A DNA stretch of 64,000 bases from an uncultured Gammaproteobacteria bacterium (GTDB lineage Bacteria; Patescibacteriota; Patescibacteriia; 2-12-FULL-60-25): NCBI GenBank assembly GCA_964604275.1, contig CAZRYH010000002.1:2413-66412 (forward strand). The letters are read 5' to 3'. The position numbers were made by a program, and so were the translations under genes. The notes beneath the pieces are model-generated. The model saw only the letters and a list, made by a program, of their open reading frames with translations, searched no databases and was not told the origin of the DNA. Below are positions 40,177 to 63,021 of the stretch, one piece after another (the first letter of the stretch is position 1; every line of letters begins with the position of its first letter).

Positions 40177-40662
40177 TCAATAGCCGAGGCTGACGCCCAC
40201 GAGCAATATCTGCAAGGTCATCCAAAGGGAATACAATCCGGCGATTACAAAATTGATTCCAAAATACACAGTGATGATATTTATCGACTTCTTTGTCTTG
40301 GTTGTCAGCGCCCATCTCATTAGCACATAATCAATAAATGAAAAGACCGAAGCGCAGGCCACTAAAATGTAAAATCTGATATCAGCCGCGTCTTTACGAA
40401 AGTTCCAAAAGTTCATTGCTGTACCCGGGAAGAAAACCTTGATACCAACCCTGTATGCGATTGTTGCCAGCAGGGTCGGCACCCCAAAAAGCATATAACC
40501 ACCCACATTTACTACTGACTCGGATAATAACGACAGGATTTTAACAAAATTACCTGTCGATAAACCCAGTTTTAAAATGGCCGCTGCAAGAATGGGCGAG
40601 AACAATATGAGGACCGCCCAACCCAACAGTTTCAACCAATTTTTGGCTTTATATAAATCCAT
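40177..40662 (-). CDS. hypothetical multi-pass membrane protein
   Basis: ATG at 40662 (MDLYKAKNW). About 5 TM helices. TATAAT lies 11 nt upstream. Confidence 0.45.
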   Translation of the reverse strand: MDLYKAKNWLKLLGWAVLILFSPILAAAILKLGLSTGNFVKILSLLSESVVNVGGYMLFGVPTLLATIAYRVGIKVFFPGTAMNFWNFRKDAADIRFYILVACASVFSFIDYVLMRWALTTKTKKSINIITVYFGINFVIAGLYSLWMTLQILLVGVSLGY

Positions 40663-40710
40663 AGCTTTTTCAATTATAGCATAGGTCGGGGATCCTAATT
40701 GTCTCAAAAA

Positions 40711-40737
40711 CAGAAAACCACCCGAAGGTGGTTTCTG
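40711..40737 (-). terminator. strong terminator downstream of the AAA ATPase gene
   Basis: CAGAAACCACC-ttcg-GGTGGTTTTCTG followed by a T-run on the minus strand. Confidence 0.7.
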
Positions 40738-40846
40738 TTTGGTCGCTGTTTGACGCTTGTTGCGTTCAACGTGATGGTAGCCCAAGTTAGAGCGAATTGG
40801 AACCAATTATTGGTGGAAATGAAGGGATGGGAGAGGCTGGCAAAGG

Positions 40847-43477
40847 CTACTGCCTGATTTTATCGTTCGTCAGTGTAGCCATGGGCATTTGATTAGTCCT
40901 CCGTCGCATTCGTACCTGCTGAACCCACTTTTCAAGTTTTTCAATATCGTTTTTCACCTCACTTGGAATAGGAAAAGGTTCATACGCTGCAAGAGGCTGA
41001 TCATGACCGCCCTCCCATTTTGAAGATTTACGTATACCTTCACGAATAGTTGAGATGTCTGCTTCAGTTATATCATGAAGGTTCTTCATGAGCTTCGTGT
41101 CGACATTACGCCTGTAGCGCACTACTGCATTTTCAAAAAGAACTTCTTCCACGGCTCTTTCCCATGTTTGACGAAGGCGCGCATAGATACGAGTTACCAT
41201 TGGTTCGTATTCATTTTCTCCGCGCTCTTTATATATACGTTCGGCGCGGCTAAGTTCCTGTTGGAGAATATCAATCCTCTCCTTTGTGCCCTTCCCCTCC
41301 CAAGGGAGTCCTGCGTTGATATGACCAGCCAAAGAATCTCCACCTCGACTGATTGTCTGGGTGTCGCATAATACATCCAAAGTTTTCGCCTCCTCAATGA
41401 GAGCAGCAACAAAAACTATTTCATGTGTAAAAACTATCACCTGACGCTTTTTTGCCTCTTCGACTAATCTTTTTGCCACGTTGGTACGCCAGCGATGGTC
41501 TAAGGACGATACGGGGTCATCGAAGATGATTGCCGACGCATGAGTAGCGCCACGAACCTCTGCTAAAAATGCAGCCAAAGCGATACACCTGCTCTCGCCC
41601 TCACTGACAACCTTACCCAGTTCTGCCTTTGTTGCGTGCTTCAAAAACACCTGGTGATAAAGAACGCCTTTCTGACCTCCTGCAGGTCTTAGCTCTAGTT
41701 CCGGTGCGTTGAATCCCAACAGTCGCAATTCATCATCGAAGGCTACTGTTAGAGTGTCTGTCACGTATTTTTTGGTTAAGTTGGTACTAAAAGTTGTCAG
41801 TGCTCGAGTATTTGTAGATTTCAAACATTGTTCGTACGCATTCATACGACCCTTGCGATCAATTTCTGCGTTTATCTGTGGAAGGACCGCCTCGAGCATG
41901 GAGCGTGACTTCAATTCCAACAGCCGCTCTTCCGATCGTTTTCGCTCAACTGGATTTGATGCCTTTAATATTTCGGTTGCCCGCTCTTCAATGCTTGTCG
42001 CTAAATTTTCCAAAATTGTTGTTGGTGGTGCCAGAGAAATTGAAGTTGGGACAAGACTATCTCCGAATAGACTAGTGCGCGCTGATTCTGCAGCCTCTAA
42101 GAACCGCTTTGTGGCTTCGTAGCCGTCGGGATCAAGTACAGCTAAGTCATCGAGTGCATCTTTCACATTCCCCGGAACAAAAGCACGGCATTTCAAAGAG
42201 AATTCTTCAAAAATCTTCTGCTTTGCCACAGCATCTGCCTGAGCGGTGCCCTGCACAAACTCTTCGAGCTTCGTCAAACGCTCCTTCGTAGACGATTCCA
42301 TCTCTTGTTGACATAAAACGCATTTAGCGCCTTCTTCAATGTGCGGGAAGGCAAGACTAGGATAAGCGTTTTCTTTCGAATATACACGTGCAGACTCCCA
42401 CAATCCTCGCCATGCAGACGATTCAAGACCGGCGAGTGTGACCTGTCCACTAAATTTCTCGGCAGCGTTACGAGCGACCCTAGCTGCATTGGATGCCTCA
42501 TCGCGGAGTCTGACGAACTGCGCAACCGACGCATCTCCTAACGATACGCTTTGCTTTTTAAGTTCTTCCGTCAGGCGACGTAATCGCGACCCCTTAATTC
42601 TGTGGTCTGCTGCCTTTTTTTCCGGATTCTCCGATTTTGCAGTAGCAATCACTTCCGTCAATTTCTCAAGCTCAAGTTGTTCATCATGAGTCAACCTAGC
42701 TACGAGATCGACGTCTTCACGCTTTGTCAAAGCTGTCAGGTTGTTCAGAAATTGGCTTGCCTGAGTATTCTGAGGGATTGCTGGCCAAGTTACGACCTGA
42801 GTTTGGAGTAAATGGAGCTCATTGTTAAGACGCGACTCTATACGCGCACAGACCCCAGCGAGTCTGTCCATCACATCGAGGCCAAAAGGTCTGAAACGCA
42901 CTTCGGTTTTATCAGATACGTACACCTGCGCAGCAGATGAGTCGAACACGCTTACTGCTCCGAGATTAGCGGGTCCAGCTATACCATCCTTCCAGATATA
43001 TTCATCTTCGTCCCCAGCGACATCAACTATGAACTTAGCGGTTGGCGGTCCGGCAGGTTTCTCAGAGAGTGCGTTTGCGAGGATAGCGTCGTTGCTTCCG
43101 CGAGCTCTACAGGCTCTCTTTAGTATCCTTCCGTAACCCGACTTACCAGCACCATTATCTCCATAGACAATGGTGAGACCTGTTTTTCCAAACTTAATCG
43201 ACTCATTTGGTGCAAGCGCATTGACGTCAGAGACATGTGTGAGGGCAACAAGATTAACAGATCCTTTTTCTTGACCGGTTGGTAGATGGTCAATGATCAA
43301 CGGTGAAATCTCGATTGTAGTCGCGCTAAGACCTTGTGGTTTCTTGCAAAGTTCCGTCAACTCCTCGATATCAGTTTCTGTAATGTCAGTTTGGACAATA
43401 ATTCGTCGCAACGCATCGCGTATCCAATGATTCTCGAGAGAATTTGACCAGGCGAGTATTTCTTCTAGGACAGACAT
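40847..43477 (-). CDS. ABC/SMC-type AAA ATPase, PrrC/RloC-like (AAA_13-like) with coiled-coil insert
   Basis: Walker A GDNGAGKSG. Long helical insert carrying CVLC. Signature SEGESRC, Walker B IIFDDPVSSLD, H-loop VFTHE. About 190-aa C-terminal domain with RLRQTWERAVEE..GGHD. Confidence 0.65.
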   Translation of the reverse strand: MSVLEEILAWSNSLENHWIRDALRRIIVQTDITETDIEELTELCKKPQGLSATTIEISPLIIDHLPTGQEKGSVNLVALTHVSDVNALAPNESIKFGKTGLTIVYGDNGAGKSGYGRILKRACRARGSNDAILANALSEKPAGPPTAKFIVDVAGDEDEYIWKDGIAGPANLGAVSVFDSSAAQVYVSDKTEVRFRPFGLDVMDRLAGVCARIESRLNNELHLLQTQVVTWPAIPQNTQASQFLNNLTALTKREDVDLVARLTHDEQLELEKLTEVIATAKSENPEKKAADHRIKGSRLRRLTEELKKQSVSLGDASVAQFVRLRDEASNAARVARNAAEKFSGQVTLAGLESSAWRGLWESARVYSKENAYPSLAFPHIEEGAKCVLCQQEMESSTKERLTKLEEFVQGTAQADAVAKQKIFEEFSLKCRAFVPGNVKDALDDLAVLDPDGYEATKRFLEAAESARTSLFGDSLVPTSISLAPPTTILENLATSIEERATEILKASNPVERKRSEERLLELKSRSMLEAVLPQINAEIDRKGRMNAYEQCLKSTNTRALTTFSTNLTKKYVTDTLTVAFDDELRLLGFNAPELELRPAGGQKGVLYHQVFLKHATKAELGKVVSEGESRCIALAAFLAEVRGATHASAIIFDDPVSSLDHRWRTNVAKRLVEEAKKRQVIVFTHEIVFVAALIEEAKTLDVLCDTQTISRGGDSLAGHINAGLPWEGKGTKERIDILQQELSRAERIYKERGENEYEPMVTRIYARLRQTWERAVEEVLFENAVVRYRRNVDTKLMKNLHDITEADISTIREGIRKSSKWEGGHDQPLAAYEPFPIPSEVKNDIEKLEKWVQQVRMRRRTNQMPMATLTNDKIRQ

Positions 43478-43639
43478 AGTGACGAAAAATATTCAAAAGC
43501 AGCTCTTTATCCAAGCCATTCTGCCGCCTAGCTCCCCACTTGGCAAGTGTAGACAAAAACTGCATAAAATGGCACTATTAAGGCCATAAAGTTCGGCAAA
43601 ACGGTCGGCAACATCCGACGTTGATACGAAAACTAATGT

Positions 43640-46600
43640 ATGGAAAAAATCTTGGATAACAAAAAGGCAAAAGTAGTCGATGTGCTGCAAGATAGGATAC
43701 AGGCAGGTTCTAAGTTATCTGTCATTTCGGCGTATTTCACTATCTACGCGTTCGACAAGTTGCGGGAACAGCTTGAGCGCGTTGATAGCCTACGCTTCCT
43801 TTTTGTAGAGCCGACCTTCACTAAACAAAAAGAAGAGAAGCGTGAGTTCGTGATCAATCGCAACGAGCGTGAACGGTTCCTGTCAGGCACGGAGTTTGAA
43901 ATAAAACTAAGAAACGAATTAACCCAATCAAAGATCGCGAAGGAATGTGCGGAATGGATTCGTAACAAAGTTGAGTTTCGTTCGATGATGAAATCCGACG
44001 CTTCACAGACGCGCGCTATACATGTCAGTAATCCAAAAGAAGAATTTGTAGTTCAAGGGTCTATTGATTTCACAGCGACAGGTATCGGCGCGGTTCCGTC
44101 GCGGAAGCTCGATCTCAACATGTTCTCCAATGATCCGCAGGCGACAAGAGAGGTCCTGACTTGGTTTGATGAGATTTGGGACAACCCTGCTCTTGCAGAA
44201 GACGTAAAGGATCAGGTTCTCCAAAATATCCAGAACATCTACAAAGAAAACAGTCCGGAGTTCTTGTATTTTGTTACGCTATACAACGTCTTCCGGGAAT
44301 ATCTCGAAGAACTGACAGAGGAAAACATCCTTAAACCACGAACAGGCATCAAGGACACTACTGTATGGAACAAGCTCTACAAGTTTCAAAAAGACGGTGT
44401 CATGGGAGCGATTGCTAAACTGGAGAAGCACAACGGCTGCATCATCGCTGATAGTGTCGGGTTGGGGAAGACATTCGAAGGACTCGCTATCATAAAATAC
44501 TACGAGCTACGCAACTGCCGTGTGCTTGTTCTTGCCCCAAAAAAACTTCGTGATAACTGGACGCTCTATCGAGTGAACGACAGCAGGAACATCTTGGCGC
44601 AGGATCGTTTTGGCTATGATGTTTTGAACCATACCGATCTCAGCCGAACGAGTGGCACATCGGGCGACATCAATCTAGAGACGGTCAATTGGGGAAACTA
44701 CGACCTTGTCGTCATCGACGAATCTCATAACTTTCGTAATAACGATCCACGCAAAGACCGCAAAACACGCTATCGGAAGCTCATGGAGGATATCATTCGC
44801 AGCGGCGTGAAGACAAAAGTCTTGATGTTGTCTGCGACACCCGTAAACAATCGTTTGAATGACCTTAAAAACCAGATTGCCTTTATTACAGAAGGCGACG
44901 ACAACGCACTCAAAGAAGATGGTATACGTAGCATCAGCGATACGCTTCGTTCCGCGCAGCTCGCGTTCAACACGTGGCTCAAGCTCCCAACAGAAGGAAG
45001 AAAGATGGGCAACCTATTGTCGTCTTTGAACATCGACTATTTTAAGCTTTTGGACGCATTAACAATCGCACGTTCGCGAAAGCACATAGAGAAGTACTAC
45101 GATTTGACGGATGTCGGCAAGTTTCCTGTTAGGCGTAAGCCGATAAACCAAAAAACAGATATTGACACAGAGGGTAATTTTCCGACGTTTGACGACATCA
45201 ACGATTCGATAAGGCGTCTGAAGCTCGCTCTCTATTCTCCCTTTACATACGTGCGGCCAGACAGAATCGCCTACTATGAGAAAAAATATGATATTCAAGT
45301 ACAGGGCGGACGCTCTGTCTTTCGTCAGGAGGATCGCGAGCGCAACCTTGTGAACCTGATGCGCGTGAATATCTTGAAGCGTCTTGAAAGTTCCGTCTAT
45401 TCCTATGACTTGACCCTACAACGCATCCACGGACGTATTGTAGGAGTTCTCAAGCAAATTGATGATATCGAGCGTACCGGTGAAGACGAAGAACAATTCA
45501 ATCTCGATAATGTAACGCAAGAAGAGGCTGTAGACGACGAAAACCTAGAGCCAGAAGATTTGATGATCGGCACGACCGTGAAAGTTGCCTTCAAAGACCT
45601 GGATCTCGTTCGTTGGCGACAGGATCTCGTTGACGATGAAAAACGTCTGTCAGGTTTGATTACTGACTCCAAACAGGTTAAACCCAAACGCGACGCCAAG
45701 CTAGAAAGACTGAAGCAAGTCATTCAAGAGAAAATGGTGCATCCGATCAACCCAGGCAATCGAAAGGTCGTTATTTTTAGTGCGTTCGCAGATACAACAA
45801 ATTACCTGTACGAGCACATAGCCAAGTGGGCAAAGAATGAGTTTGGTGTTGAAAGCGCCCTGGTTACCGGTAGTGGACCGAACTTAAGCACGGCAAGTGA
45901 CATTCCTCACCAGTTCGGAGCCATTTTGACCAACTTCTCACCATTGTCAAAAGAACGAGACAAAGTCTACCCGAACATAAAAACGAATATCGACATACTG
46001 ATCGCAACCGATTGCGTATCTGAGGGCCAAAACCTTCAGGACTGTGATTGTTTGGTGAATTATGACATCCACTGGAACCCAGTGCGAATCATCCAACGAT
46101 TTGGTCGTATTGACCGTATCGGGTCAAAAAATGACAGTATCCAATTGATAAACTTTTGGCCAAACTTAGAGCTTGATGCGTACATCCGTCTGGAATCGCG
46201 CGTACGTGGCCGTATGATGCTCTTAAACTCATCCGCGACTGGTGAAGACGACATCATCAATGAAACGGAGACGGACATAATGAACGATATTGAATATCGA
46301 AAAAACCAGCTCATGAAACTTCAAGAAGAGGTGGTGGATCTGGAGGATATCTCCGGCAATCTGTCTATCACGGACCTGACCATGAACGATTTCAAAATGG
46401 ACTTGATGGAGTACATGAAAGACCACAAACAAGAGTTGGAAAACGCCCCCCTTGGTATGTACGCCGTTGCCGATCGCACGCGCATGACAGATAGCGAGCT
46501 TAAGCCCGGCGCGATTTTCGTGCTGAAGCAGGCAGCGTTCTCGGGGTTAGAGAGTAAGGAAGTTAACGCTCTCCACCCCTACTACCTCATCTGCATCGAA

Positions 46601-46909
46601 GAAGGCGGCATTATCCGGCATGGATACACGCAGGCAAAGTACATTCTGGATATGTACAAGAAGCTTTGCCGTGGCGTGGAAGGCGTAAATGCGGATTTGG
46701 TCGCTGCGTTTGATCGCACGACAAATGAAGCCAGTGATATGCGCCTCTACTCCTCCCTGCTCGAGACGGCCATCGCGAATATCATCGGTAAAAAACAAGA
46801 AAATGTTCTTACGTCGTTATTTTCCCTAGGTAGATCACTCATTGCGGAACAAGGCCGTTTATCTGGACTGGATGATTTTGAGCTCGTTTCCTTTCTCGTG
46901 ATTAAATGA
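43640..46909 (+). CDS. SNF2-family helicase with N-terminal PLD-like domain
   Basis: ADSVGLGKTFEG, VVIDESHNFRN, ATDCVSEGQNLQD, HWNPVRIIQRFGRIDRIGS. N-terminal SVISAYFTIYAF..LRFLF segment. Confidence 0.85.
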   Translation: MEKILDNKKAKVVDVLQDRIQAGSKLSVISAYFTIYAFDKLREQLERVDSLRFLFVEPTFTKQKEEKREFVINRNERERFLSGTEFEIKLRNELTQSKIAKECAEWIRNKVEFRSMMKSDASQTRAIHVSNPKEEFVVQGSIDFTATGIGAVPSRKLDLNMFSNDPQATREVLTWFDEIWDNPALAEDVKDQVLQNIQNIYKENSPEFLYFVTLYNVFREYLEELTEENILKPRTGIKDTTVWNKLYKFQKDGVMGAIAKLEKHNGCIIADSVGLGKTFEGLAIIKYYELRNCRVLVLAPKKLRDNWTLYRVNDSRNILAQDRFGYDVLNHTDLSRTSGTSGDINLETVNWGNYDLVVIDESHNFRNNDPRKDRKTRYRKLMEDIIRSGVKTKVLMLSATPVNNRLNDLKNQIAFITEGDDNALKEDGIRSISDTLRSAQLAFNTWLKLPTEGRKMGNLLSSLNIDYFKLLDALTIARSRKHIEKYYDLTDVGKFPVRRKPINQKTDIDTEGNFPTFDDINDSIRRLKLALYSPFTYVRPDRIAYYEKKYDIQVQGGRSVFRQEDRERNLVNLMRVNILKRLESSVYSYDLTLQRIHGRIVGVLKQIDDIERTGEDEEQFNLDNVTQEEAVDDENLEPEDLMIGTTVKVAFKDLDLVRWRQDLVDDEKRLSGLITDSKQVKPKRDAKLERLKQVIQEKMVHPINPGNRKVVIFSAFADTTNYLYEHIAKWAKNEFGVESALVTGSGPNLSTASDIPHQFGAILTNFSPLSKERDKVYPNIKTNIDILIATDCVSEGQNLQDCDCLVNYDIHWNPVRIIQRFGRIDRIGSKNDSIQLINFWPNLELDAYIRLESRVRGRMMLLNSSATGEDDIINETETDIMNDIEYRKNQLMKLQEEVVDLEDISGNLSITDLTMNDFKMDLMEYMKDHKQELENAPLGMYAVADRTRMTDSELKPGAIFVLKQAAFSGLESKEVNALHPYYLICIEEGGIIRHGYTQAKYILDMYKKLCRGVEGVNADLVAAFDRTTNEASDMRLYSSLLETAIANIIGKKQENVLTSLFSLGRSLIAEQGRLSGLDDFELVSFLVIK

Positions 46910-46910
46910 T

Positions 46911-47690
46911 ATGCGCAATCTTGTCATTGAAGCCCTTGGTCTCACGAAACATCCTGCTCTTCAAAATAGTCGTGTTCCAAAAGCAGCTTTTTTTGAGCAG
47001 GAAAGCTGTGACGCACAAGATCGAAGACTTCTGACGGCTGAGGTTGATGGTTTAACTTTACTTGCAGTCTTCAATGCTACAACGACCAACCTCGCCTCCT
47101 ACCAAGATGAAGATCACAATTACGAGGAGTTGTATCTGTTCTACGTTGAACTTCGGAGCGATACGCACGTACATCATATCGCCGAGTTGCTTCATGCGAT
47201 CATCCCCAATCCTTTACTGGTCGTGTTTGCTTATGAGGGGAAAATAGCCTTGTCTGCAGCCGAGAAACGACTGAACAAAAATGAACATGGCAAGACAATC
47301 GTCGAGGGTGTTATGACGAGCCCTTGGACGTCCTTAAAGCCAACCAATGACCAAGAACGTGCATTCCTCACTTCGATAGCCATAACAAACTGGTCTCACC
47401 ACGACATACTTTCATTTCTGCGTGATGCAGAACGCCTGATCTTAGCCTCCAATCTTGCGCTGATTGCCGGGCAGTTCACCTCTAGCCGCAAGTTGGATGT
47501 AATGGACGCAACCAGACTATTGCAAGAGCATGCTATGTGCACAGAAAGGATTAACGCTTTGGAAAGAGAAGAAAAAAACACCTCCCATTTTGGGGAACGA
47601 ATGCAAATCCACCTCACCGCGAATAACGAGCGTAAAAAACTAGAGTCGTGCAGACAAACCATTAAAACCCTCGTCCAATCCCTTACTTAA
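46911..47690 (+). CDS. DUF4391-like protein
   Basis: 259 aa, sits between a helicase and a methylase. IPNPLLVVFAYEGKIALSAAEKRLNK resembles the DUF4391 core. Called from memory, not from a search. Confidence 0.55.
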   Translation: MRNLVIEALGLTKHPALQNSRVPKAAFFEQESCDAQDRRLLTAEVDGLTLLAVFNATTTNLASYQDEDHNYEELYLFYVELRSDTHVHHIAELLHAIIPNPLLVVFAYEGKIALSAAEKRLNKNEHGKTIVEGVMTSPWTSLKPTNDQERAFLTSIAITNWSHHDILSFLRDAERLILASNLALIAGQFTSSRKLDVMDATRLLQEHAMCTERINALEREEKNTSHFGERMQIHLTANNERKKLESCRQTIKTLVQSLT

Positions 47691-47695
47691 AAACT

Positions 47696-49474
47696 ATGCA
47701 AAAACTCACTCTAAATACGCATGACCTTATTGCGGACAATATCGAACAACTGAAGTCATTGTTTCCAGAGGCATTCGTCGAGGGAAAAGTGGACTTTGAC
47801 ATGCTGCGGACACTGCTTGGAGATGCGGTGGAGAAGGACAAGGAACGATTTGGCTTGTCGTGGCCAGGAAAGCAAGATGCAATCAAGATGGCACTGGTGC
47901 AAAATAGCGGTACCCTGCGACCGAAGAAGGAGGAGAGCAAAGACTGGGACACAACAGGTAATCTTTTTATCGAAGGAGATAATCTTGAGGTCTTACGCGT
48001 ATTACTCGAGACGTATCGTGGAAAGGTGAAGATGATTTATATCGACCCGCCGTATAACACGGGCAATGATTTTGTGTATAAGGACGACTTTGCGGACAAT
48101 GTGGCAAGCTATAAAGAGAAAGCCGGTGAAAACATGAAATCCAATGCGGCGACTGCAGGACGCTATCACTCTAACTGGTTGTCCATGATGTATCCGAGGT
48201 TGAAGTTAGCGAAGGAGTTTTTGAAGGATGACGGTGCAATTTTTGTGAGTATTGATGACAATGAATGTAAAAATTTGCGAAGTATGATGGATGAAATTTT
48301 TGGTGAAGAGAACTGGGCAGCTACATTCGCATGGAGAAAGACGGATAACCAACCTAATATTGGAAACGTCGCCAGAGTAAAGGAATACATTGTTTGTTAT
48401 TCTCACTCAATTAAATGTTTGAGATTGAACAAGATGCGTCTCACGGATCGCGCGAAGAGAGAATATAGATATGAAGATACAAACGGAATATTTAGAAGGA
48501 CGATACTTTTAGATAAAACCAGGGGCAGGCATTACTACGACCTCAAAACACCAACCGGCAAAATATTAGGGGGTCCTTGGATGATAAGGCTTGAGGAGTT
48601 TCTAGAACTCGAAAAAGATAATCAAATATATTGGACAAGAGGTGGAGAAGAGCAACCTTACGGGAAATTGCACTTATCTAATAGTGAGGGTCAAATAACA
48701 AACGATTTTCTTGGTATTGAATACGGCACAAATCAACAAGGTAGTTTGGAATGTGAAGAGTTGTTCGGGAGCAGGGTATTTGATTTTCCCAAGCCGGTTT
48801 CATTAATCAAACATTTCGCAACAGTTGCTACGTCAGATAATGACATCATTCTAGACTTTTTTGCTGGATCTGGAACCACGGCACAAGCGACTTTGGAGCT
48901 AAATATCGAAGACAGCGCTAATCGTAAGTTTATTCTTATTCAACTACCAGAAATAACTCCAGAAGCAGGTGAAGCACGAAAGGCCGGATTTAAGACTATC
49001 GCTGATATTACAAAAGAACGCATCAGGCGTGCAGGCGAGAAGATTAAAAAGGAGAATACAGAGAAACCGCTTGATGTCGGCTTCAAAGTCTTCACCCTCG
49101 ATACCTCAAACCTCGCTCAATGGGACGAAAAAACACGCGACCTCCAAAATAGTCTTCTAAACTATACTCAAGGCATCAAGACGGATCGAGCACCGGAAGA
49201 CGTGTTGTATGAAGTCTTGCTCAAATACGGCATTGATCTGACGACACCTATTGCCACGGAATCAATCAACGGGAAACAAGTCTACAATGTCGGAGAAGGT
49301 TATCTGCTTGTTTGCTTGGAGAAAGATGTTGATCTGGCCACAATTGAGGCCATTGCCGCAAAGAAGCCATCCCGTGTCGTTTTTTTGGACAAAGGTTTTG
49401 CTGACGACGTCGTAAAACTGAATGCCGAGCAGACGCTTAAGAAAGCGGGGGTTGAGGACCTGCGTGTTTTGTAG
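47696..49474 (+). CDS. N6-adenine DNA methyltransferase (type III Mod-like, beta class)
   Basis: IYIDPPYNTGNDF (motif IV) comes before DFFAGSGTTAQA (motif I). Confidence 0.9.
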   Translation: MQKLTLNTHDLIADNIEQLKSLFPEAFVEGKVDFDMLRTLLGDAVEKDKERFGLSWPGKQDAIKMALVQNSGTLRPKKEESKDWDTTGNLFIEGDNLEVLRVLLETYRGKVKMIYIDPPYNTGNDFVYKDDFADNVASYKEKAGENMKSNAATAGRYHSNWLSMMYPRLKLAKEFLKDDGAIFVSIDDNECKNLRSMMDEIFGEENWAATFAWRKTDNQPNIGNVARVKEYIVCYSHSIKCLRLNKMRLTDRAKREYRYEDTNGIFRRTILLDKTRGRHYYDLKTPTGKILGGPWMIRLEEFLELEKDNQIYWTRGGEEQPYGKLHLSNSEGQITNDFLGIEYGTNQQGSLECEELFGSRVFDFPKPVSLIKHFATVATSDNDIILDFFAGSGTTAQATLELNIEDSANRKFILIQLPEITPEAGEARKAGFKTIADITKERIRRAGEKIKKENTEKPLDVGFKVFTLDTSNLAQWDEKTRDLQNSLLNYTQGIKTDRAPEDVLYEVLLKYGIDLTTPIATESINGKQVYNVGEGYLLVCLEKDVDLATIEAIAAKKPSRVVFLDKGFADDVVKLNAEQTLKKAGVEDLRVL

Positions 49475-49477
49475 CGT

Positions 49478-52471
49478 ATGTTGAAACTAAAATTTGACGC
49501 GCATCAAAAGTTCCAGCAGGACGCAGTCGAAGCGATTGCGGATATTTTTGACGGCCAATCGCTACGCCATTCCGCCTTCACAGCCACAAAAGGTCGTGGC
49601 CTCTTTGGAGTCATGACTGAGCTCGGCTACGGCAACAAGCTAGACCTCATTGAAGAAGATCTATTGAAGAACGTTATACGCATTCAGGATCGTAACAAAC
49701 TTAAACGCAGCATGCGTATCGTAGATGATCTCTATGGCGTTCCAAACTTCGCTGTGGAGATGGAGACAGGGACGGGCAAGACGTATGCCTACACGCGTAC
49801 GATATTTGAATTGAACCGACGTTATGGATTCTCCAAGTTCATCATCGTCGTTCCGAGCGTCGCCATTCGTGAAGGCGTAAAAAAGTCACTTGAGATTACA
49901 GAAACGCATTTTCGTGAACTTTTTCCAGACCAAGCCTATGACCACTTCGTCTATGACTCGACCAAGCTGAGTCGTGTGCGAGACTTCGCCACGAACAGCG
50001 CGATCCAAATCATGATTATCAACATCGACGCATTTCGCAAGGGATTCACCGGCGACGAGGGCGACACCAAGGCAAACGTAATCCACAAGGAGCAAGATGC
50101 TCTAAGCGGACGTAGGCCGATCGAGTTCATTCAAGCGACAAACCCAATCGTTATCATCGACGAGCCACAATCTGTCGACAACACAGACAAGGCAAAAGAG
50201 TCCATCAAGTCGCTCAATCCGCTTTGCATTTTGCGCTACTCTGCAACACATCGCGATGCGTATAATCTGATGTACAAACTCGGCCCAGTAGACGCCTGCG
50301 AACAAAAGCTCGTGAAGAGAATAGAAGTCCTTGCCATGGGGAGCGCTCCAGCCGGACCGGATATGCAGCTGGTGAGCGTCTCTGAAAAAGCTGGAAACTA
50401 CACCGCAAAGCTTGAGATTGGATGTGTAAATAAAGGCGACGGCGGTATTACTGCCAAGGCTATCACGGTCAATGCAGGAAAAAAGAGCGACCTTTTTCTT
50501 CTCTCAGGTGAAAACCCCGCCTTCAAGGGCTATCGTGTTTCAAGCGTATCTATTGCACCCGGGAATGAATACGTTGAAGTCAATGACACGATCGTCGTCA
50601 AACTCCAACAAGCGACAAATGACGACGAGCTTAAACGCGCGCAGATACGCTCGACTATCGAAGCTCATCTTGAAAAAGAAGTGCACTTGCTCGATAAAGG
50701 CATCAAGGTCCTATCGTTGTTTTTCATTGATCGCGTTGCAAACTATCGTAATCATGAAGCGGCTAATCTCAAAGGGAAGTATGCGCGTATATTTGAAGAA
50801 GAATATCTTAAAGTTGTAGCCATCCCCAAATATCAAACCCTTTTTACCACTGACTTTGTTCGTCAGTATGCTTTGACTCATGATGTCGAAAAAGCGCACG
50901 ATGGTTATTTCTCCAAGGACAAAAAAGGGAAGGTGAAAGATACTTCCGAAGGGAGAACGACTCAGGACGACCAGTCGATATACGACCTGATCATGAAAAA
51001 TAAAGAACTATTGCTAAGCTTTGACTCGCCTCTGCGTTTTATCTTCTCCCACTCTGCCCTGCGAGAGGGTTGGGATAATCCGAACGTATTTCAAATTTGT
51101 ACGCTTGTCGAAACGCAAGATGCCATGACGAAGCGACAAAAAATTGGTCGTGGATTACGTCTTCCGGTAAACCAACTGGGGGACAGGATCGTGGACGATC
51201 AAATCAATATCCTGACCGTTGTAGCCAATGAAAGCTATGAGCAGTTCGCGGAGACCTTGCAACACGAGATCGAGAGCGAAACGAACACCCGATTCGGCGT
51301 CATCACCGAGCGACTGTTCGAAGATATTCTGGTTGGTACCGAAGACACCGCGCATAGACTCGGCTATGACGCTTCAAAACGCATCCACGATCACCTACTC
51401 CAACAAGGACTTCTAGATCGTCATGATAAGGCGACAAAGGAGCTTAAGGATGCTATCGCAAGAAATGACCTCCCTGTGCCGCAAGAGTTCGTACCGCTGA
51501 AAATGGCCATTCTAGAAGAGATTGAGAAGACAACGAAACGTTTGCAGATTTTTAACGCTGGAGACAAAGAGCATGTATCTGTACACAAACAGGTTCTGCT
51601 CGATCCAAACTTCCGCGAGCTGTGGGATCGCATCAAGTGGAAGACGGTTTTTCGTTTGGATTTTGACGTGGACGGCCTAATCCAAGACTGCATCGACTCC
51701 TTAAAAGATCGCGGGAACATGCCGGAACTGACACCGAATCCCATTATCGCAAAGTGGGTCAACATCAATATCACCAATCAGGGCATTACAGCGTCCGAGC
51801 CGCATCGCATACGGACATTCGTACGCGATAACTACGAGAATCAAAACCTGCCAAATCTTCTTGAATACATTGAACGTTTCACGCGCATCAAAAAGGATAC
51901 GATTGCCAAGATTTTGGTCGGATCCGGACGTCTTGAGGAGTGTTATGTGAATCCACAGGTCTTTATGGAGACGGTCATTTCGATAATCAACAGAAACAAG
52001 ACCAAGCGCATCACAGACGGCATTCGTTACGAACGCATCGGAGATGAGTCTTTTTTTGCCCAAGAACTCTTTGAGGACGAAGAATTGCTTGGCTACCTAA
52101 AGATGAATGCCCTATCTGTCGACAAGAGCGTCTATTCTCACGTCTTGTACGACTCTGATATTGAAAGACAGTTCGCTCAACGCCTCAATGATGACGATGA
52201 TGTAAAGATGTTCATAAAGCTCCCAAGTTGGTTCAAAGTTGAAACACCACTTGGTACATACAATCCTGATTGGGCTGTCGTTCTAGAAAAGAATGGTATC
52301 GAAAAACTCTATTTTATCCTTGAAACAAAGGGTAGTATCATCGCAGAAGATCTTCGCTTCTTCGAACAAAAGAAGATCGAATGTGGCCGTAAACATTTTG
52401 CGGCTATCGGAGACGGCGTGACGTTTGATGTCGCCGAATCCTATACGCAGTGGCGAAGCAAATTGATGTAA
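49478..52471 (+). CDS. type III restriction enzyme Res-like helicase-nuclease
   Basis: METGTGKTY, IIDEPQS, helicase C-terminal motifs. C-terminal PD-(D/E)xK-like YNPDWAVV..YFILETKG. Confidence 0.85.
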   Translation: MLKLKFDAHQKFQQDAVEAIADIFDGQSLRHSAFTATKGRGLFGVMTELGYGNKLDLIEEDLLKNVIRIQDRNKLKRSMRIVDDLYGVPNFAVEMETGTGKTYAYTRTIFELNRRYGFSKFIIVVPSVAIREGVKKSLEITETHFRELFPDQAYDHFVYDSTKLSRVRDFATNSAIQIMIINIDAFRKGFTGDEGDTKANVIHKEQDALSGRRPIEFIQATNPIVIIDEPQSVDNTDKAKESIKSLNPLCILRYSATHRDAYNLMYKLGPVDACEQKLVKRIEVLAMGSAPAGPDMQLVSVSEKAGNYTAKLEIGCVNKGDGGITAKAITVNAGKKSDLFLLSGENPAFKGYRVSSVSIAPGNEYVEVNDTIVVKLQQATNDDELKRAQIRSTIEAHLEKEVHLLDKGIKVLSLFFIDRVANYRNHEAANLKGKYARIFEEEYLKVVAIPKYQTLFTTDFVRQYALTHDVEKAHDGYFSKDKKGKVKDTSEGRTTQDDQSIYDLIMKNKELLLSFDSPLRFIFSHSALREGWDNPNVFQICTLVETQDAMTKRQKIGRGLRLPVNQLGDRIVDDQINILTVVANESYEQFAETLQHEIESETNTRFGVITERLFEDILVGTEDTAHRLGYDASKRIHDHLLQQGLLDRHDKATKELKDAIARNDLPVPQEFVPLKMAILEEIEKTTKRLQIFNAGDKEHVSVHKQVLLDPNFRELWDRIKWKTVFRLDFDVDGLIQDCIDSLKDRGNMPELTPNPIIAKWVNINITNQGITASEPHRIRTFVRDNYENQNLPNLLEYIERFTRIKKDTIAKILVGSGRLEECYVNPQVFMETVISIINRNKTKRITDGIRYERIGDESFFAQELFEDEELLGYLKMNALSVDKSVYSHVLYDSDIERQFAQRLNDDDDVKMFIKLPSWFKVETPLGTYNPDWAVVLEKNGIEKLYFILETKGSIIAEDLRFFEQKKIECGRKHFAAIGDGVTFDVAESYTQWRSKLM

Positions 52472-53181: not shown

Positions 53182-53385
53182 ATGATAAAAGTTGACCAAG
53201 ACTCCATAGATCCGATTAACCGCGCGAGCAAAATAACCTGCAAATGTGAGCACTGCTCCTCAATAATAACAATCCATGTGACTAACGGATTCGACGTGGA
53301 CGACAAGGGTGAATGTATTGATGCAGGGGTAATCGAGGGCCTGATGAAGGACCTATCCTGCGAGGCCTGTGGGAGCAAATTCTAA
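53182..53385 (+). CDS. small Cys-containing protein (possible zinc ribbon)
   Basis: 67 aa with CKCEHC ... CEACG. The stop codon lies 7 nt before the next ATG. Confidence 0.4.
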   Translation: MIKVDQDSIDPINRASKITCKCEHCSSIITIHVTNGFDVDDKGECIDAGVIEGLMKDLSCEACGSKF

Positions 53386-53392
53386 CAAAAAT

Positions 53393-54301
53393 ATGCCTGA
53401 CAAAGCTTGTCCGTTATGTAAGAATGCCGCGATCATAGAGAATCAGTTTCCGAAGTCAACCATATTCGTGGAATGCGACCGATGTGGAAGATACGAAATA
53501 AGTACAATGTTGAATGCAAGCGAGGTACTTAATAAATACAGGACGGCGCTTTCTGGACTATGTCGTGAATTAACCGAGACGCATCAGGATCTTCCCGTCT
53601 TAACCACCTCTCTTGATGAGCTTGTTAAGAATTTTCCAGTACCGAATATGGATGATTTGGAGGCTAAGCTTGAAAAGCTACTGGCCGCCATCAAGCGTAA
53701 ATCAAAATACTTTGGATATCTTGTAGAGCTTGATTATGACAAGGATTATCCCTTAGCGTATGCCCAGAACGGCGACGAGCTCTTTGCTTTCATTAATCAG
53801 CTAAGAGCCATGGGGCTACTCGAGCTCAAGAGTGAAGATAGCCAAACGAAATTCGTATCCCTGTCAGGTGAGGGATGGAAGCAACTGTCTAGGCTAACAA
53901 AAACAATAAAACAGAAGCAGGGTTTCGTGGCCGCCTGGTTCGATCCAAGCACCGACGAAAGCATTTCAACCATAAAACAAGCAATTGAGTCCTGTGGCTT
54001 TGCTCCTATGTGCATAAAGACGGAGCACTTCAAAGAGACGATAATGGATAAGGCCTTAGGGGAACTACAAAACAGTAGGTTTGTCGTTGTGGACCTAACA
54101 GGCTCACGCCCTAGTGTATTTTTTGAGGCGGGTTACGCCCGAGCCCTCAACATCGAGACTATTTTTGTCTATAAGGAAGATGAAGCTGAAAAACAAAAAT
54201 TAGAATTTTACGTTAAGCATTACCAGTGCCACAAATACAATGATATGGACGAGTTAGGCGAGATTATTAAAAATGCGATCAGCTCAAGAATTAAAGATTA
54301 A
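53393..54301 (+). CDS. Zn-ribbon / winged-helix / NDT- or TIR-like Rossmann domain protein
   Basis: CPLCKN..CDRCGR. FINQLRAMGLLELK..SLSGEGW (wHTH-like). C-terminal GFVAAWFD..FVVVDLTGSRPSVFFEAGYARAL. Confidence 0.55.
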   Translation: MPDKACPLCKNAAIIENQFPKSTIFVECDRCGRYEISTMLNASEVLNKYRTALSGLCRELTETHQDLPVLTTSLDELVKNFPVPNMDDLEAKLEKLLAAIKRKSKYFGYLVELDYDKDYPLAYAQNGDELFAFINQLRAMGLLELKSEDSQTKFVSLSGEGWKQLSRLTKTIKQKQGFVAAWFDPSTDESISTIKQAIESCGFAPMCIKTEHFKETIMDKALGELQNSRFVVVDLTGSRPSVFFEAGYARALNIETIFVYKEDEAEKQKLEFYVKHYQCHKYNDMDELGEIIKNAISSRIKD

Positions 54302-56685: not shown

Positions 56686-58071
56686 TTATTGGACAACTAT
56701 CAAACGACTTCGCGCTCTTGTATGAGCGACGTAAGAGATTCTGCGCTCCTCCAGCTTGTCATCAGGAGCATCTAAGCCAAGTGAAACGTTGAGGCGACTT
56801 AGGACATCCTTCCTATAAGGTTGCTTGGCATACAGAACCGTATCTGCCTCCATACCTTTAGCCCGATGAACGGTCATGAAGTTGGCAAAGGGATATTCCT
56901 TCTCCCAAGAGGCTAAGTCTACGCCATAGAGGGAATTAGACCGCGACAATACCAAACATGGCCGCCCAAGGGAGGCCAGGAACTGACGGACGCAAACTCC
57001 CCCGAGGCCACCCTTAATAAACTCGACTTCACCGCCTGATTCGTTGGTTAAACCACCGGCTCCCATGCCTCGCATCTGCTTGTTCGCGTATTCGACTATC
57101 TCCCTTCCGCTACGATAGTTAGTGAGCAGGCTTACACGAGCAGAATCACCGAAACGTCCCTCGAAGTTGCGGAAGTAGTCCAAGTTCGATCCAGCAAAGC
57201 CATTGATGGCCTGCCAATCGTCGCCAACACAATACAAGCCCATGGAGGAGTTTCTGTCCCTAAGTTTCTGGACTAAGCGGAAGAATGGACTGGAGAAGTC
57301 TTGGAATTCGTCGATACACAGGAGCTTGATTGAGCCGAAACGGACTGATTGAGAGCCTAAGCGGATTATCTGGCCGTCTTTAATGCTATCGACACCCGTA
57401 AGTGCTGCTTCGATCAGGTCATCGAAATCAATCCGGCCACTGTCCGCAAGGGCCTGCTGGTATCGCTCAAAGACATCAACGGCTAGAGTAGCCAGATTTC
57501 CTTTGCCTTTAGCCCGTTCGTTGGCTTGCTCGGGGGTGAGATTCAGGTGCTTACACTTTGAGATTAAGGCCAAGATGGAATCTCTTAGTCCGTCCTCTTT
57601 GAAGCCATATGGTCTGAGGCAATCCTCTACGATACGTTCCCTTGCCTGCCCGAAGACTAAAGTCCCACGCGCAGGCTGCACGATCGAATGCGCCAAGGCG
57701 TGGAAGGTCGAAGATGGGATCAATTTGGCTCCATATCTATCCATTCTTCGGCCTAAGCCCAAGGCGGCATTACGATTAAACGAGAGTGCTAGGATGTCTG
57801 TCGCCTTAGTGCCTTTATCGAGCTCTAACGCTGCTCTCAAGGCGATGACGGCGGTCTTGCCGGCCCCAGCTCTCGCCGTTACCAGAACATTCTTGTTAGG
57901 GACGCTAAGAGCATCCAGCTTCTCCTTACTCGGGGAAAAACCTGTGATGGACTCAAGCCATATTCTTAAGCGATCGTTATAGGGACCAGTCGGGACCGGC
58001 TGCTCTTTGGCTCTCTTTTGCTCCGCCCACCCAAACGCAAGGACAATGAGGATGATGATTAAGATGGACAT
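56686..58071 (-). CDS. UvrD/Rep-like SF1 helicase with N-terminal hydrophobic anchor
   Basis: TARAGAGKTA, CIDEFQDFS, TVHRAKGMEAD, YVAHTRARS. The N-terminus MSILIIILIVLAFGW is TM-like. Confidence 0.7.
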   Translation of the reverse strand: MSILIIILIVLAFGWAEQKRAKEQPVPTGPYNDRLRIWLESITGFSPSKEKLDALSVPNKNVLVTARAGAGKTAVIALRAALELDKGTKATDILALSFNRNAALGLGRRMDRYGAKLIPSSTFHALAHSIVQPARGTLVFGQARERIVEDCLRPYGFKEDGLRDSILALISKCKHLNLTPEQANERAKGKGNLATLAVDVFERYQQALADSGRIDFDDLIEAALTGVDSIKDGQIIRLGSQSVRFGSIKLLCIDEFQDFSSPFFRLVQKLRDRNSSMGLYCVGDDWQAINGFAGSNLDYFRNFEGRFGDSARVSLLTNYRSGREIVEYANKQMRGMGAGGLTNESGGEVEFIKGGLGGVCVRQFLASLGRPCLVLSRSNSLYGVDLASWEKEYPFANFMTVHRAKGMEADTVLYAKQPYRKDVLSRLNVSLGLDAPDDKLEERRISYVAHTRARSRLIVVQ

Positions 58072-61159: not shown

Positions 61160-62020
61160 ATGGAAAAGAATCAAAACGCAGAGTGGGCAAAGCAATACTT
61201 AAATCATTATTGGCCGGCAATTCCTCTGGGACAAAAACCAGACCTTTCATGGAAGCAAGCGCTGGTTCCCTGGCAGTCTTACGAAAATATGTTGCCGACG
61301 GAAGCAGATATTGCGTCCTGGTGGAACCAGTGGCCATTTGCAAGGGTCGGCATAATCACGGGGAAGATATCAAAATTAGTGGTCGTCGACATCGACCCAA
61401 GGCATGGCGGAAACCCGAATGAGCTCGACTTACCTCCCACCCTTATCGCCTCAACTGGCGGTGGCGGCTGGCACTACTACTATCGCTATCCGGAGCATAT
61501 GCGTATCAAAAGCCAGTCCGACATCAAAAAAGGGGTTGATATCAGGGCCGAGGGTGGGTTGGTTGTGGCCCCACCGTCAGAACATATCTCTGGAAAGAAA
61601 TACGAATGGCAAGATGAGTTCGATCCATCAATGATCGCTCCATGTCCGGATTGGATTATCGAAATAAACAAAGACATGGCTATTGCGCCATCGAGGATCC
61701 AATCTGCTTCGCCTTTAATTTACGGACGAGATCCGCTAAGCAGGGCTCTAAACGCCCCAATCAATGAAGTCATATGTTATGCGGCAAAAGCAGTTGGCGT
61801 GAGCGTGTCGTTTCGGCAAAACGGCAACAGAACGTGCCAAATAATCGAGGACGGAAGGGTTACATCAGGTTTTATCTCATCGCAAGGGAACTACTGTTAT
61901 TCAGCATCCGGCAAACTGCGCCGTGGGAACCCGATAAATGTCGCTGAATATTACATAAATGTTGTGGGAGGACGTAAGTATAGCCGCTCACAAATAATAA
62001 AAACTATCAACAACTTATGA
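61160..62020 (+). CDS. bifunctional DNA primase/polymerase (PrimPol) domain protein
   Basis: LVVVDIDPRHGG, GGGGWHYYY, DIRAEGGLVVAPPS motifs. Confidence 0.85.
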   Translation: MEKNQNAEWAKQYLNHYWPAIPLGQKPDLSWKQALVPWQSYENMLPTEADIASWWNQWPFARVGIITGKISKLVVVDIDPRHGGNPNELDLPPTLIASTGGGGWHYYYRYPEHMRIKSQSDIKKGVDIRAEGGLVVAPPSEHISGKKYEWQDEFDPSMIAPCPDWIIEINKDMAIAPSRIQSASPLIYGRDPLSRALNAPINEVICYAAKAVGVSVSFRQNGNRTCQIIEDGRVTSGFISSQGNYCYSASGKLRRGNPINVAEYYINVVGGRKYSRSQIIKTINNL

Positions 62021-63021
62021 ATTCAGAGTGTGAATTTCCGATTATCAAGTATAAAGAGCTCTGTTCTATGAATTTGCCAAAAATCAATTATTTAGTGGAG
62101 GGGTTAATTCCAGAAATAGGTTTGACCATGTTTCAAGGTCACCCTGGCACGAACAAATCTTGGTTTGCCTACTATTTAGCCTATTGTGCGGCTAACGGAT
62201 TACCCTTATTGAATACATACAAGACAAAAAAGGCTTCTGTGTTACTAGTATGCCCCGATGACTACCTACCGACCATGCAAGAAAGATTGGCGATCTTAGG
62301 CCTTGATCCCAATGTCGATATTTCGGTGCTAAATCCTGAGAAAATCCTTGACGTAGGTTCGCCGGAATTCGACCGGTTTCTGGATTACATAGAAAAAGAA
62401 AAACACGAGGTCGTGATCATAGATACCTTACGAAACATTCATCGCGCTGATGAAAACGATTCAAGTCAAATGGATATTATCATGCAGAGACTCCGTCTAC
62501 TGGCCAAGAATCGGTGCGTAGTCCTCATCCACCACCTTAATAAAAATACTTTGGTCAACACAGTTGTTGCTTCAAGGGGCTCCACGGTTATACCCGCCGC
62601 CCTGATTTCAGGGTTCAATTTCAAAAAAAATGGAGAGTACCGCTTAAGCCTCACGCAGTTCAAGAATAAAATTGGCAGGCTTCATCCCGAATTACGGCTG
62701 GAATTCAATGAGCAGATGCGAGGCATCGACATATTTAATCTCGATCTATCAAGACCCAAAGAAGAAGTCCAAAGCTCTATCTTGAAAGTGATTAAGGAAG
62801 CCTATGAAGAAAACCCCACACCGGAGTTAACCAAAAATGAATTCAAAGATCTTCTTCATGGAAGTGGCAATGGTGCATATTCCAAGAATGAAATTGATAA
62901 GGCTTATTCAGAATTGATTAAACAGGGCTTCCTTTGCCCGGACGGCATCCGTAGACAGGCTAATCGCATCTGCTACATCAAGAACCCATGCACCAGGACG
63001 ACCGAAACGGAAGCCACTTAG
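62017..63021 (+). CDS. RecA-fold AAA_25/RepA-like ATPase
   Basis: GHPGTNKSWFA (Walker A), VVIIDTLRNIH (Walker B). ATGA overlap with the PrimPol gene. Confidence 0.7.
   Translation: MNSECEFPIIKYKELCSMNLPKINYLVEGLIPEIGLTMFQGHPGTNKSWFAYYLAYCAANGLPLLNTYKTKKASVLLVCPDDYLPTMQERLAILGLDPNVDISVLNPEKILDVGSPEFDRFLDYIEKEKHEVVIIDTLRNIHRADENDSSQMDIIMQRLRLLAKNRCVVLIHHLNKNTLVNTVVASRGSTVIPAALISGFNFKKNGEYRLSLTQFKNKIGRLHPELRLEFNEQMRGIDIFNLDLSRPKEEVQSSILKVIKEAYEENPTPELTKNEFKDLLHGSGNGAYSKNEIDKAYSELIKQGFLCPDGIRRQANRICYIKNPCTRTTETEAT

Follow-up and report, generated by a model that had tools for sequence, protein, structure and literature searches.

Type III enzymes are the textbook form of a two-subunit, ATP-switched restriction machine. 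The locus described here lies in a 64,000-nt stretch of DNA from an uncultured Gammaproteobacteria bacterium (positions 2,413 to 66,412 of contig CAZRYH010000002.1, forward strand, assembly GCA_964604275.1; hereafter the window, meaning this whole stretch) and joins a Type III core to an SNF2-family ATPase and a protein of the DUF4391 family. It resembles EcoP15I and EcoP1I in its beta-class N6-methyladenine (m6A) methyltransferase, Mod, in its Res subunit, which links a superfamily 2 (SF2) ATPase to a PD-(D/E)xK nuclease, and in the order mod before res. It differs from them in that their two-gene composition gives way to four co-inherited genes, and in that its Res belongs to a separate clade and scores below the equivalog cut-off (see below). 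The four genes are:

43640-46909, + strand: SNF2-family ATPase gene (1089 aa, ATG start)
46911-47690, + strand: DUF4391 gene (259 aa, ATG start)
47696-49474, + strand: Type III Mod gene (592 aa, ATG start)
49478-52471, + strand: Type III Res gene (997 aa, ATG start)

The open reading frame (ORF) calls and the junction sequences give gaps of 1 nt between SNF2 and DUF4391, 5 nt between DUF4391 and Mod and 3 nt between Mod and Res, exactly confirming the coordinates and spacing that an earlier note, made from the letters of this DNA, had reported. We regard the cassette, with a probability of roughly 0.55, as a Type III restriction system of a dual-ATPase kind: Res would be the sole nuclease, and SNF2 and DUF4391 would form a co-inherited motor/adaptor module.

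The closest published analogue of this layout is MANTIS/Gao_RL, which comprises MtsA (AAA+, DUF499), MtsB (DUF3870), a PglX-like methylase and an active effector with phospholipase D (PLD) and SF2 domains; MtsA and MtsB are needed for methylation as well as for restriction, and the system hemimethylates asymmetric sites and shows a preference for inverted ones (bioRxiv 10.64898/2026.09.23.753747). Both systems have four genes that can be described as an ATPase, a small co-factor, an m6A methylase and a helicase-nuclease, and both contain two ATPases. Every protein family is different, however, the cassette having instead an SNF2 protein with a PLD domain predicted to be dead, DUF4391, a Type III Mod and a PD-(D/E)xK Res. 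Membership of MANTIS was rejected on the grounds that no DUF499 or DUF3870 match was found in Pfam, that the NF042964 PLD anti-phage model reached 120 bits against a cut-off of 1100, and that the HKD motif is lost.

Class 1 DISARM is likewise methylation-based and includes DrmD, an SNF2 helicase, as well as a PLD protein, and DrmD models are the best named matches for the motor lobe of the window SNF2 protein. At 142.5 bits, and spanning no more than residues 563-843, this match falls short of the equivalog cut-off of 610. The match to the DrmA model is confined to the C lobe of the helicase in SNF2, and in the window cassette the PLD domain is fused to SNF2 and appears inactive. None of the four proteins has a Pfam match to the DUF1998 protein of DISARM (DrmB), or a Pfam or PADLOC match to PglZ or BrxC of BREX, in agreement with the earlier note, so that membership of either system was rejected.

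SauUSI, the NgoAVII/CglI class and the lactococcal AbiRc are built along similar lines, with a PLD fold at the N-terminus, then an SF2 motor and finally a C-terminal domain. SauUSI and the NgoAVII/CglI class cut with the PLD site, whereas the window protein has lost its HKD motif and is accompanied by a separate Res nuclease. AbiRc is described as having a restriction-endonuclease-like N-terminal domain and an Snf2-like ATPase, with a methylase that keeps its toxicity under control. Hma (HmaA-HmaB-HmaC) shares with the cassette an SNF2 helicase within a methylase-containing defence operon, but HmaA carries a C-terminal PD-(D/E)xK nickase and the system has neither DUF4391 nor a Type III Res. 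HmaA matches only the helicase lobe of the window SNF2 protein (E-value 6.6e-24), and membership of Hma was rejected on its defining proteins; DndFGH and the Makarova 2013 review were likewise set aside as not concerning this system.

In open-access papers and bioRxiv we found no account of an SNF2-DUF4391-Mod-Res system, which bears out the view that no experimentally defined mechanism has been given for the arrangement. Mentions of DUF4391 in the same literature were irrelevant, the one in a Goslar phage preprint being apparently a slip for DUF7941. PADLOC 2.0 (PADLOC-DB from 2023) recognises only MTase_III, REase_III and the unnamed C3a139, and no library names the whole system. The annotation libraries tested call the cassette plain Type III or miss half of it, and neither PADLOC 2.0 and NCBIfam nor the marker-protein tests assigned it to an already characterised subtype, as had been anticipated.

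The four proteins

Mod matches Pfam N6_N4_Mtase, PADLOC MTase_III over its full length (E-value 4e-207) and EcoP15I Mod (PDB 4zcf_A, E-value 2e-61). Its motifs are those of a beta-class N6-adenine methyltransferase, with motif IV (DPPY, residue 117) preceding motif I (FxGxG, here FAGSG at residue 389) and the recognition region between them. Both motifs are kept in 64 orthologues, among which residues 203-366 are almost without conserved positions, as expected of a recognition domain. Two features of the Type III core can be delimited on the DNA:

48312-48854, + strand: Mod target-recognition region, between motif IV and motif I; a gap in the blastn alignment with the closest relative, L004
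52124-52438, + strand: Res PD-(D/E)xK endonuclease domain (PF19778, E-value 4.7e-37; PD at residues 930-931, ExK at 949-951)

The first of these is the sole stretch of the cassette without DNA homology to L004, which is 74% identical elsewhere. The recognition specificity of Mod probably differs between the two loci, and the position of the break suggests that specificity was exchanged while the rest of the cassette was conserved.

Res combines an SF2 helicase-like ATPase with a C-terminal PD-(D/E)xK nuclease. It matches Pfam ResIII and RE_endonuc, PADLOC REase_III over its full length (E-value 1e-303) and EcoP15I Res (PDB 4zcf_C, E-value 4e-63), and carries TGTGKT at residue 97, DEPQ at 228, SAT at 255 and GRGLR at 557 in addition to the nuclease motifs. 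The residues of the ATPase and nuclease motifs (including P930, D931, E949 and K951) show 95% conservation or more across 59 orthologues. Judged by these motifs, Res is the only nuclease of the operon predicted to be intact. The plasmid-borne relatives of Res form two groups: one matches over the full length at 32-48% identity and is annotated only as 'DEAD/DEAH box helicase', and the other is EcoPI-type and matches the window Res over the helicase region only, at ~31% identity. Since the protein is split from the EcoPI-type group and, at 374.9 bits, does not reach the cut-off of 564 of the NCBIfam Type III endonuclease equivalog (PRK15483), it can be assigned on sequence to a Type III clade separate from that of EcoPI. 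The proposal that Mod and Res form a Type III-like core stands, both being EcoP15I homologues with intact catalytic motifs.

The SNF2 protein can be divided as follows:

43640-44239, + strand: N-terminal domain of PLD fold (residues ~1-200), with a degenerate HKD motif ('IHVS...GSIDFT')
44375-44899, + strand: ATPase lobe 1 (GLGKT at residue 274, DESH at 360, SATP at 398)
45752-46123, + strand: ATPase lobe 2, Helicase_C (QRFGR at residue 819)
46337-46906, + strand: C-terminal ~190 aa, with columns conserved within the family and no library match

Its assignment to the SNF2 family follows from an N lobe and a Helicase_C lobe (Pfam SNF2-rel_dom and Helicase_C) in which Walker A, Walker B and motif VI are intact, and all three motifs are invariant in 94 of 94 full-length orthologues. 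The closest PDB sequence is that of RapA (E-value 2e-12), and ISWI/SNF2 remodellers are also among the best solved relatives. For the C-terminal ~190 aa no Pfam match was found at an E-value of 10 or below. Matches over the full length were obtained with phrog_26785 and with PADLOC C3a139 (E-value 3e-143); 'C3a139 HKD+Snf2' was rejected as a named system, being only an unnamed neighbour cluster from a Type III CRISPR survey.

The N-terminal domain was barely visible to sequence profiles: PLDc_2 gave a sub-threshold match (E-value 0.011, 16 bits against 27) and a profile search of PDB sequences gave none. An AlphaFold (AF2) model of residues 1-235 was obtained with a predicted local distance difference test score (pLDDT) of 77, and a Foldseek search with it returned PLD-fold nucleases with probability 1.0, SauUSI (7clg) being the top match (E-value 1.3e-7, template-modelling (TM) score 0.51), followed by Zucchini, NgoAVII R, BfiI and NucT. 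The PLD fold of this domain is thus confirmed at the level of the predicted model. The catalytic pattern HxK(x)4D...GSxN is absent, HVS...GSIDFT standing in its place, and among the 94 orthologues the catalytic His is found in 35 and His together with Lys in 2. It is therefore predicted that the PLD domain is catalytically dead and that the SNF2 protein works as a motor without adding a second nuclease. Of its description in the earlier note as an SNF2-PLD-like helicase, the SNF2 motor and the PLD fold hold, and the PLD active site has been lost.

More distant plasmid-borne relatives in Microcystis and Halorubrum, at 24-28% identity, retain HAK...GSSNFT and have neither DUF4391 nor Type III genes alongside. 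These HKD-intact PLD-SNF2 genes directly follow a gene for an N6-methylase of 1100-1200 aa (L103, 3937-12267; L104, 5354-12768). Such a two-gene system of a methylase and an HKD-intact PLD-SNF2 protein may represent the ancestral context of the SNF2 gene. We infer from these sequences that the nuclease of an ancestral PLD-SNF2 effector, at first both nuclease and motor, was lost once its lineage had become associated with a Type III Res, and the locus would then be a clear example of an effector losing its nuclease after pairing with another nuclease.

The product of 46911-47690 had been called DUF4391-like, and the Pfam match leaves little doubt (E-value 8.7e-41, 140.8 bits against a gathering threshold of 29.9, profile positions 10-231 of 232). 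An exhaustive search places 723 clusters at 50% identity in the family, nearly all of the listed members being single-domain proteins of ~250 aa, while a word-indexed homologue search had returned only 2 matches. Conserved residues include K24, Y71/E73, HxxIPNP around 96-101, K119-R120 and Y170. The AF2 model, built on an alignment of 86 sequences, has a pLDDT of 97.8 and consists of an N-terminal alpha/beta domain followed by three long C-terminal helices. Foldseek found nothing at an E-value of 1e-3 or below in PDB and BFVD (best TM ~0.2-0.25), and the profile had no match among PDB sequences. CorA, Brix and RecJ were considered as structural relatives and dismissed as weak matches (TM of 0.2 or below). 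As modelled, DUF4391 is an orphan fold without a structural relative in PDB or BFVD. PADLOC and NCBIfam contain no matching model, and PHROGs has one listed with function unknown. In the Erysipelothrix phage phi1605 (L105, 12255-12968), where mef(A)/msr(D) adjoin the cassette, and on a Vibrio alginolyticus plasmid (AP026557.1), DUF4391 genes are annotated as '(methyl-accepting) chemotaxis protein', which is probably a mis-annotation.

Recurrence, co-divergence and mobility

Since the DUF4391 alignments (86 and 12 sequences) were too diverged to serve as an anchor, genomes were scanned with SNF2. At least 594 species genomes were matched, and the best 80 loci were analysed with our own hidden Markov models. 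These 80 loci come from Firmicutes, Proteobacteria, Bacteroidota, Planctomycetota, Verrucomicrobiota, Vampirovibrionia, Saccharibacteria and methanogens. Where at least 9 kb of downstream DNA was available (54 loci), DUF4391, Mod and Res followed SNF2 in that order and on the same strand in 53; the remaining locus has Mod and no detectable Res. DUF4391 lies downstream of SNF2 in 73 of the 80, and in the 7 exceptions under 3 kb of sequence is available downstream. The gap between the two genes has a median of -4 nt and is within 60 nt in 62 of the 73 loci, and the two are usually translationally coupled, as read from the sequences, through this 4-nt overlap.

Searches from the other genes gave the same picture. 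All 8 DUF4391-anchored plasmid loci inspected, which include one archaeon and one cargo region of a Tn7-like transposon, have SNF2-DUF4391-Mod, with a full-length Res in 6; Res is a fragment in the Desulforapulum plasmid locus and is split by an insertion sequence (IS) in that of Acetobacter. Res-anchored searching recovered the four-gene system on plasmids of E. faecium, B. cereus, L. plantarum and Listeria, and it is also present on an E. coli plasmid (pHS30-1) and on an Erysipelothrix prophage-like element.

The sequences of the four proteins have also diverged together. Across 56 complete loci the pairwise identities correlate with Spearman coefficients of 0.72-0.85, and in Mantel tests 0 of 300 permutations reached the observed value. 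The coefficient for SNF2 and Res (0.85) is as high as that for Mod and Res (0.82). Mean pairwise identity in these loci is 0.52 for SNF2, 0.47 for Res, 0.44 for Mod and 0.28 for DUF4391, which appears from these comparisons to be fast-evolving. The suggestion that the two extra genes are co-conserved with Mod and Res is thus upheld by the 53 of 54 loci, by all DUF4391-anchored plasmid loci inspected and by the Mantel tests.

These data bear on the simplest explanation, namely an ordinary Type III system whose other two genes are unrelated neighbours, adjacent by chance. Automated tools do call Mod and Res only, and in a survey of lactococcal methylomes Type III systems are taken to consist of Mod and Res. 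The explanation is nevertheless contradicted by the co-divergence, by the overlapping stop and start codons and by the recurrence of one order across phyla and archaea. An identical order in 53 of 54 loci sampled independently goes well beyond what chance would produce, and we consider this explanation scarcely credible.

A further explanation is that SNF2 and DUF4391 constitute an independent second defence that shares the operon, either as a SauUSI-like modification-dependent module or as a back-up triggered by anti-restriction proteins. The succession of PLD domain, SF2 motor and C-terminal domain does parallel SauUSI, the HKD-intact relatives adjoin other methylases, fast evolution of DUF4391 is what would be expected of a protein contacting phage factors, and the operon often hosts unrelated defence cargo. 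However, no nuclease or effector seems to be left in the pair, given how rarely the orthologues keep His and Lys together, and it never occurs without a Type III Mod in the 54 loci (one of them being without a detectable Res). Furthermore, the pair diverges in step with Res and the gene order is fixed. An independent defence is therefore rather improbable.

The cassette as a whole appears to move between genomes. DNA homology to L004 spans 43638-52469, broken only at the Mod recognition region, and the flanks are unrelated. Homology sets in and breaks off at the edges of the cassette, which makes the four genes the unit of transfer, and on this comparison the cassette is self-contained and horizontally mobile. 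It is found on plasmids, on a Tn7-like element, on prophage-like elements or elements resembling integrative and conjugative elements (ICEs), and in islands. A near-full-length match is present on 121 plasmids, there are more than 8000 relatives of the SNF2 protein, and the taxa with the system include E. coli, Enterococcus faecium, Listeria monocytogenes, Bacillus cereus, Lactococcus and archaea. This is a large, ancient and highly mobile Type III lineage, equipped with a second motor of the chromatin-remodeller type and with a protein whose fold matches none known, and the copies on plasmids of E. coli and lactic acid bacteria make it tractable.

A dual-ATPase reading of the cassette

Under the dual-ATPase reading, the extra pair would act with Mod-Res as a motor/adaptor module, and the precedent is MANTIS, where a methylase and a helicase-nuclease are under the control of an additional ATPase and its small partner. 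Mod would hemimethylate an asymmetric site and so mark self, as in other Type III systems, and Mod-Res would detect unmodified sites on incoming DNA. A complex of SNF2 and DUF4391, with DUF4391 as the likely adaptor, would dock on Mod/Res, and its ATP-driven translocation or remodelling of double-stranded DNA would load, license or boost cleavage by Res, possibly through removal of bound proteins or through a loosening of the strict requirement for two inverted sites. Res would be the only nuclease. The dead PLD domain may act as a dimerisation or DNA-holding module, a remnant of the ancestral PLD-SNF2 restriction effector. That the four proteins interact is something we infer.

A stronger form of this reading, which we put forward tentatively and hold to be less probable than not, is that the cassette represents a hitherto unrecognised, motor-assisted class of Type III systems, in which a remodeller-type ATPase, recruited by an adaptor of new fold, is required for restriction and alters the rules of the classical enzyme. 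The altered rules might include cleavage at single or same-orientation sites, the stripping of protective proteins from phage DNA, or the sensing of anti-restriction factors via the fast-evolving DUF4391. Solving the system would assign a function to DUF4391 and reveal what an SNF2 motor adds to restriction, and it would extend the dual-ATPase theme of MANTIS to the classical restriction families.

Several points weigh against the dual-ATPase reading. EcoP15I-type Mod-Res works alone. Extra genes are found at the DUF4391-Mod junction in 18 of 66 loci and at the Mod-Res junction in 26 of 59, and with insertions this common the tight spacing seen in the window is not universal. Two-gene derivatives also exist: an S. 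epidermidis plasmid has Mod-Res alone (L108, 6048-11096), with a Res 78% identical to that of a Listeria four-gene locus (L098), and Aeromonas pK533 has Mod-Res behind IS630, with a Res 57% identical to four-gene relatives. The Mod and Res of these derivatives are nested in the four-gene clade and are intact as annotated, which means that Mod-Res can persist without the accessory pair and that the pair is not indispensable. Finally, in a metagenomic variant (L099, 9001-10410; L100, 6734-8143) there is no SNF2 gene, DUF4391 carries a fused N-terminal domain of 233 aa, and Mod and Res follow. This variant lies directly after a CBASS SAVED-HNH effector and CD-NTase. The two-gene systems of L. crispatus and Rhodococcus fall outside the four-gene group, at 31-37% identity.

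Some details of these variants may be added. The fused 233-aa domain has no Pfam match and shows by eye an E2-like 'HVN...FCLG' motif. The Listeria DUF4391 (L098) is shortened to 185 aa and is barely recognisable (E-value 2.7e-4), and the accessory pair may be decaying in the Listeria/S. epidermidis lineage. The inserted genes (L010-L089), whose family names come from reading the sequences by eye, without a library scan, include an AlbA_2-like gene of ~555 aa in 6 loci, DinD-like genes in 5 and RhuM in 4, as well as Fic, Doc, DUF262/GmrSD-like, DarT-like and SIR2 genes, a CBASS-like pair, a zeta toxin and IS elements. Type I hsd operons are known for comparable insertion of unrelated defence and toxin genes.

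The two-gene derivatives also bear on the main rival of the dual-ATPase reading, a MANTIS-like loader, in which SNF2 and DUF4391 would load or activate Mod on DNA so that methylation and restriction would both need the second ATPase. A host could lose such a module without toxicity, in keeping with the existence of these derivatives, and the gene order and logic are those of MANTIS, where MtsA and MtsB are required for both activities. On the other hand, the N-terminal and catalytic regions of Mod are closely homologous to those of EcoP15I Mod, which methylates by itself. Moreover, SNF2 is a translocase and not a loader of the ORC/Cdc6 type, and the protein families are unrelated, with no match to DUF499 or DUF3870. 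We therefore consider the MANTIS-like loader unlikely, and continue to favour the dual-ATPase reading.

Control and setting of the operon

The promoter of the operon probably lies in the following region:

43478-43639, + strand: intergenic region upstream of the SNF2 gene

It contains a single weak sigma-70-like match (43621-50), such matches being no commoner there than in shuffled sequence. Inside the four-gene block no promoter-like or terminator-like sites were found on the + strand above shuffled expectation, and the block contains no simple-sequence (phase-variable) repeats. The absence of internal promoters and terminators fits, as weak evidence, a single transcription unit.

In about 30 of 78 loci a small ORF ends just upstream of SNF2, while in the window, unlike in many relatives, no credible small ORF for a helix-turn-helix (HTH) regulator was found in 43478-43639. 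The regulators that precede SNF2 in relatives (L006, L008, L032, L042, L049, L055, L056, L064, L081 and L094) are of at least three unrelated kinds, namely excisionase/MerR-type HTH, XRE-type HTH and ribbon-helix-helix (RHH) proteins. They may act like C proteins or MtsR.

Control is also the role that one further rival assigns to the accessory pair, which would restrain or time Res so that the cassette could enter an unmethylated host without killing it. Carriage of the cassette on plasmids, the Tn7-like element, ICE- or prophage-like elements and islands would suit such an establishment module, as would the lack of a controller gene in the window copy. However, a 4-kb ATPase module with invariant motor motifs would be an expensive way to restrain Res, small HTH or RHH regulators are encoded separately at many loci, and the loss of a pure brake should do harm, yet two-gene derivatives persist. 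A control module is accordingly quite improbable, and the dual-ATPase reading remains our preference.

Further genes of interest surround the cassette. Divergent from the operon is a pair on the - strand (40177-43477), consisting of an 876-aa ABC/AAA_13-type ATPase, with a full-length match to the PADLOC candidate defence family PDC-S06 (E-value 6e-219), and an adjoining 209-aa hydrophobic protein (40177-40806) without a family match. Just downstream of Res, a gene at 53369-54301 (+ strand) encodes a 310-aa protein with an N-terminal Lar-like zinc ribbon and, at the C-terminus, a weak match to a nucleoside 2-deoxyribosyltransferase/TIR-effector-like domain (PADLOC TIR effector, E-value 2.8e-8); from its domains it is possibly another defence gene.

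The guanine-plus-cytosine (GC) content of the cassette stretch is ~0.45, compared with ~0.54 upstream of 40 kb. Neither a tRNA nor an integrase was found within the window. The cassette lies in a low-GC island (39300-64000) whose right end is beyond the window. The same island holds a UvrD/GajB-like helicase (56686-58071, - strand) and a replication module of Prim-Pol and AAA_25 (61160-63021, + strand), a setting that suggests an integrated mobile element.

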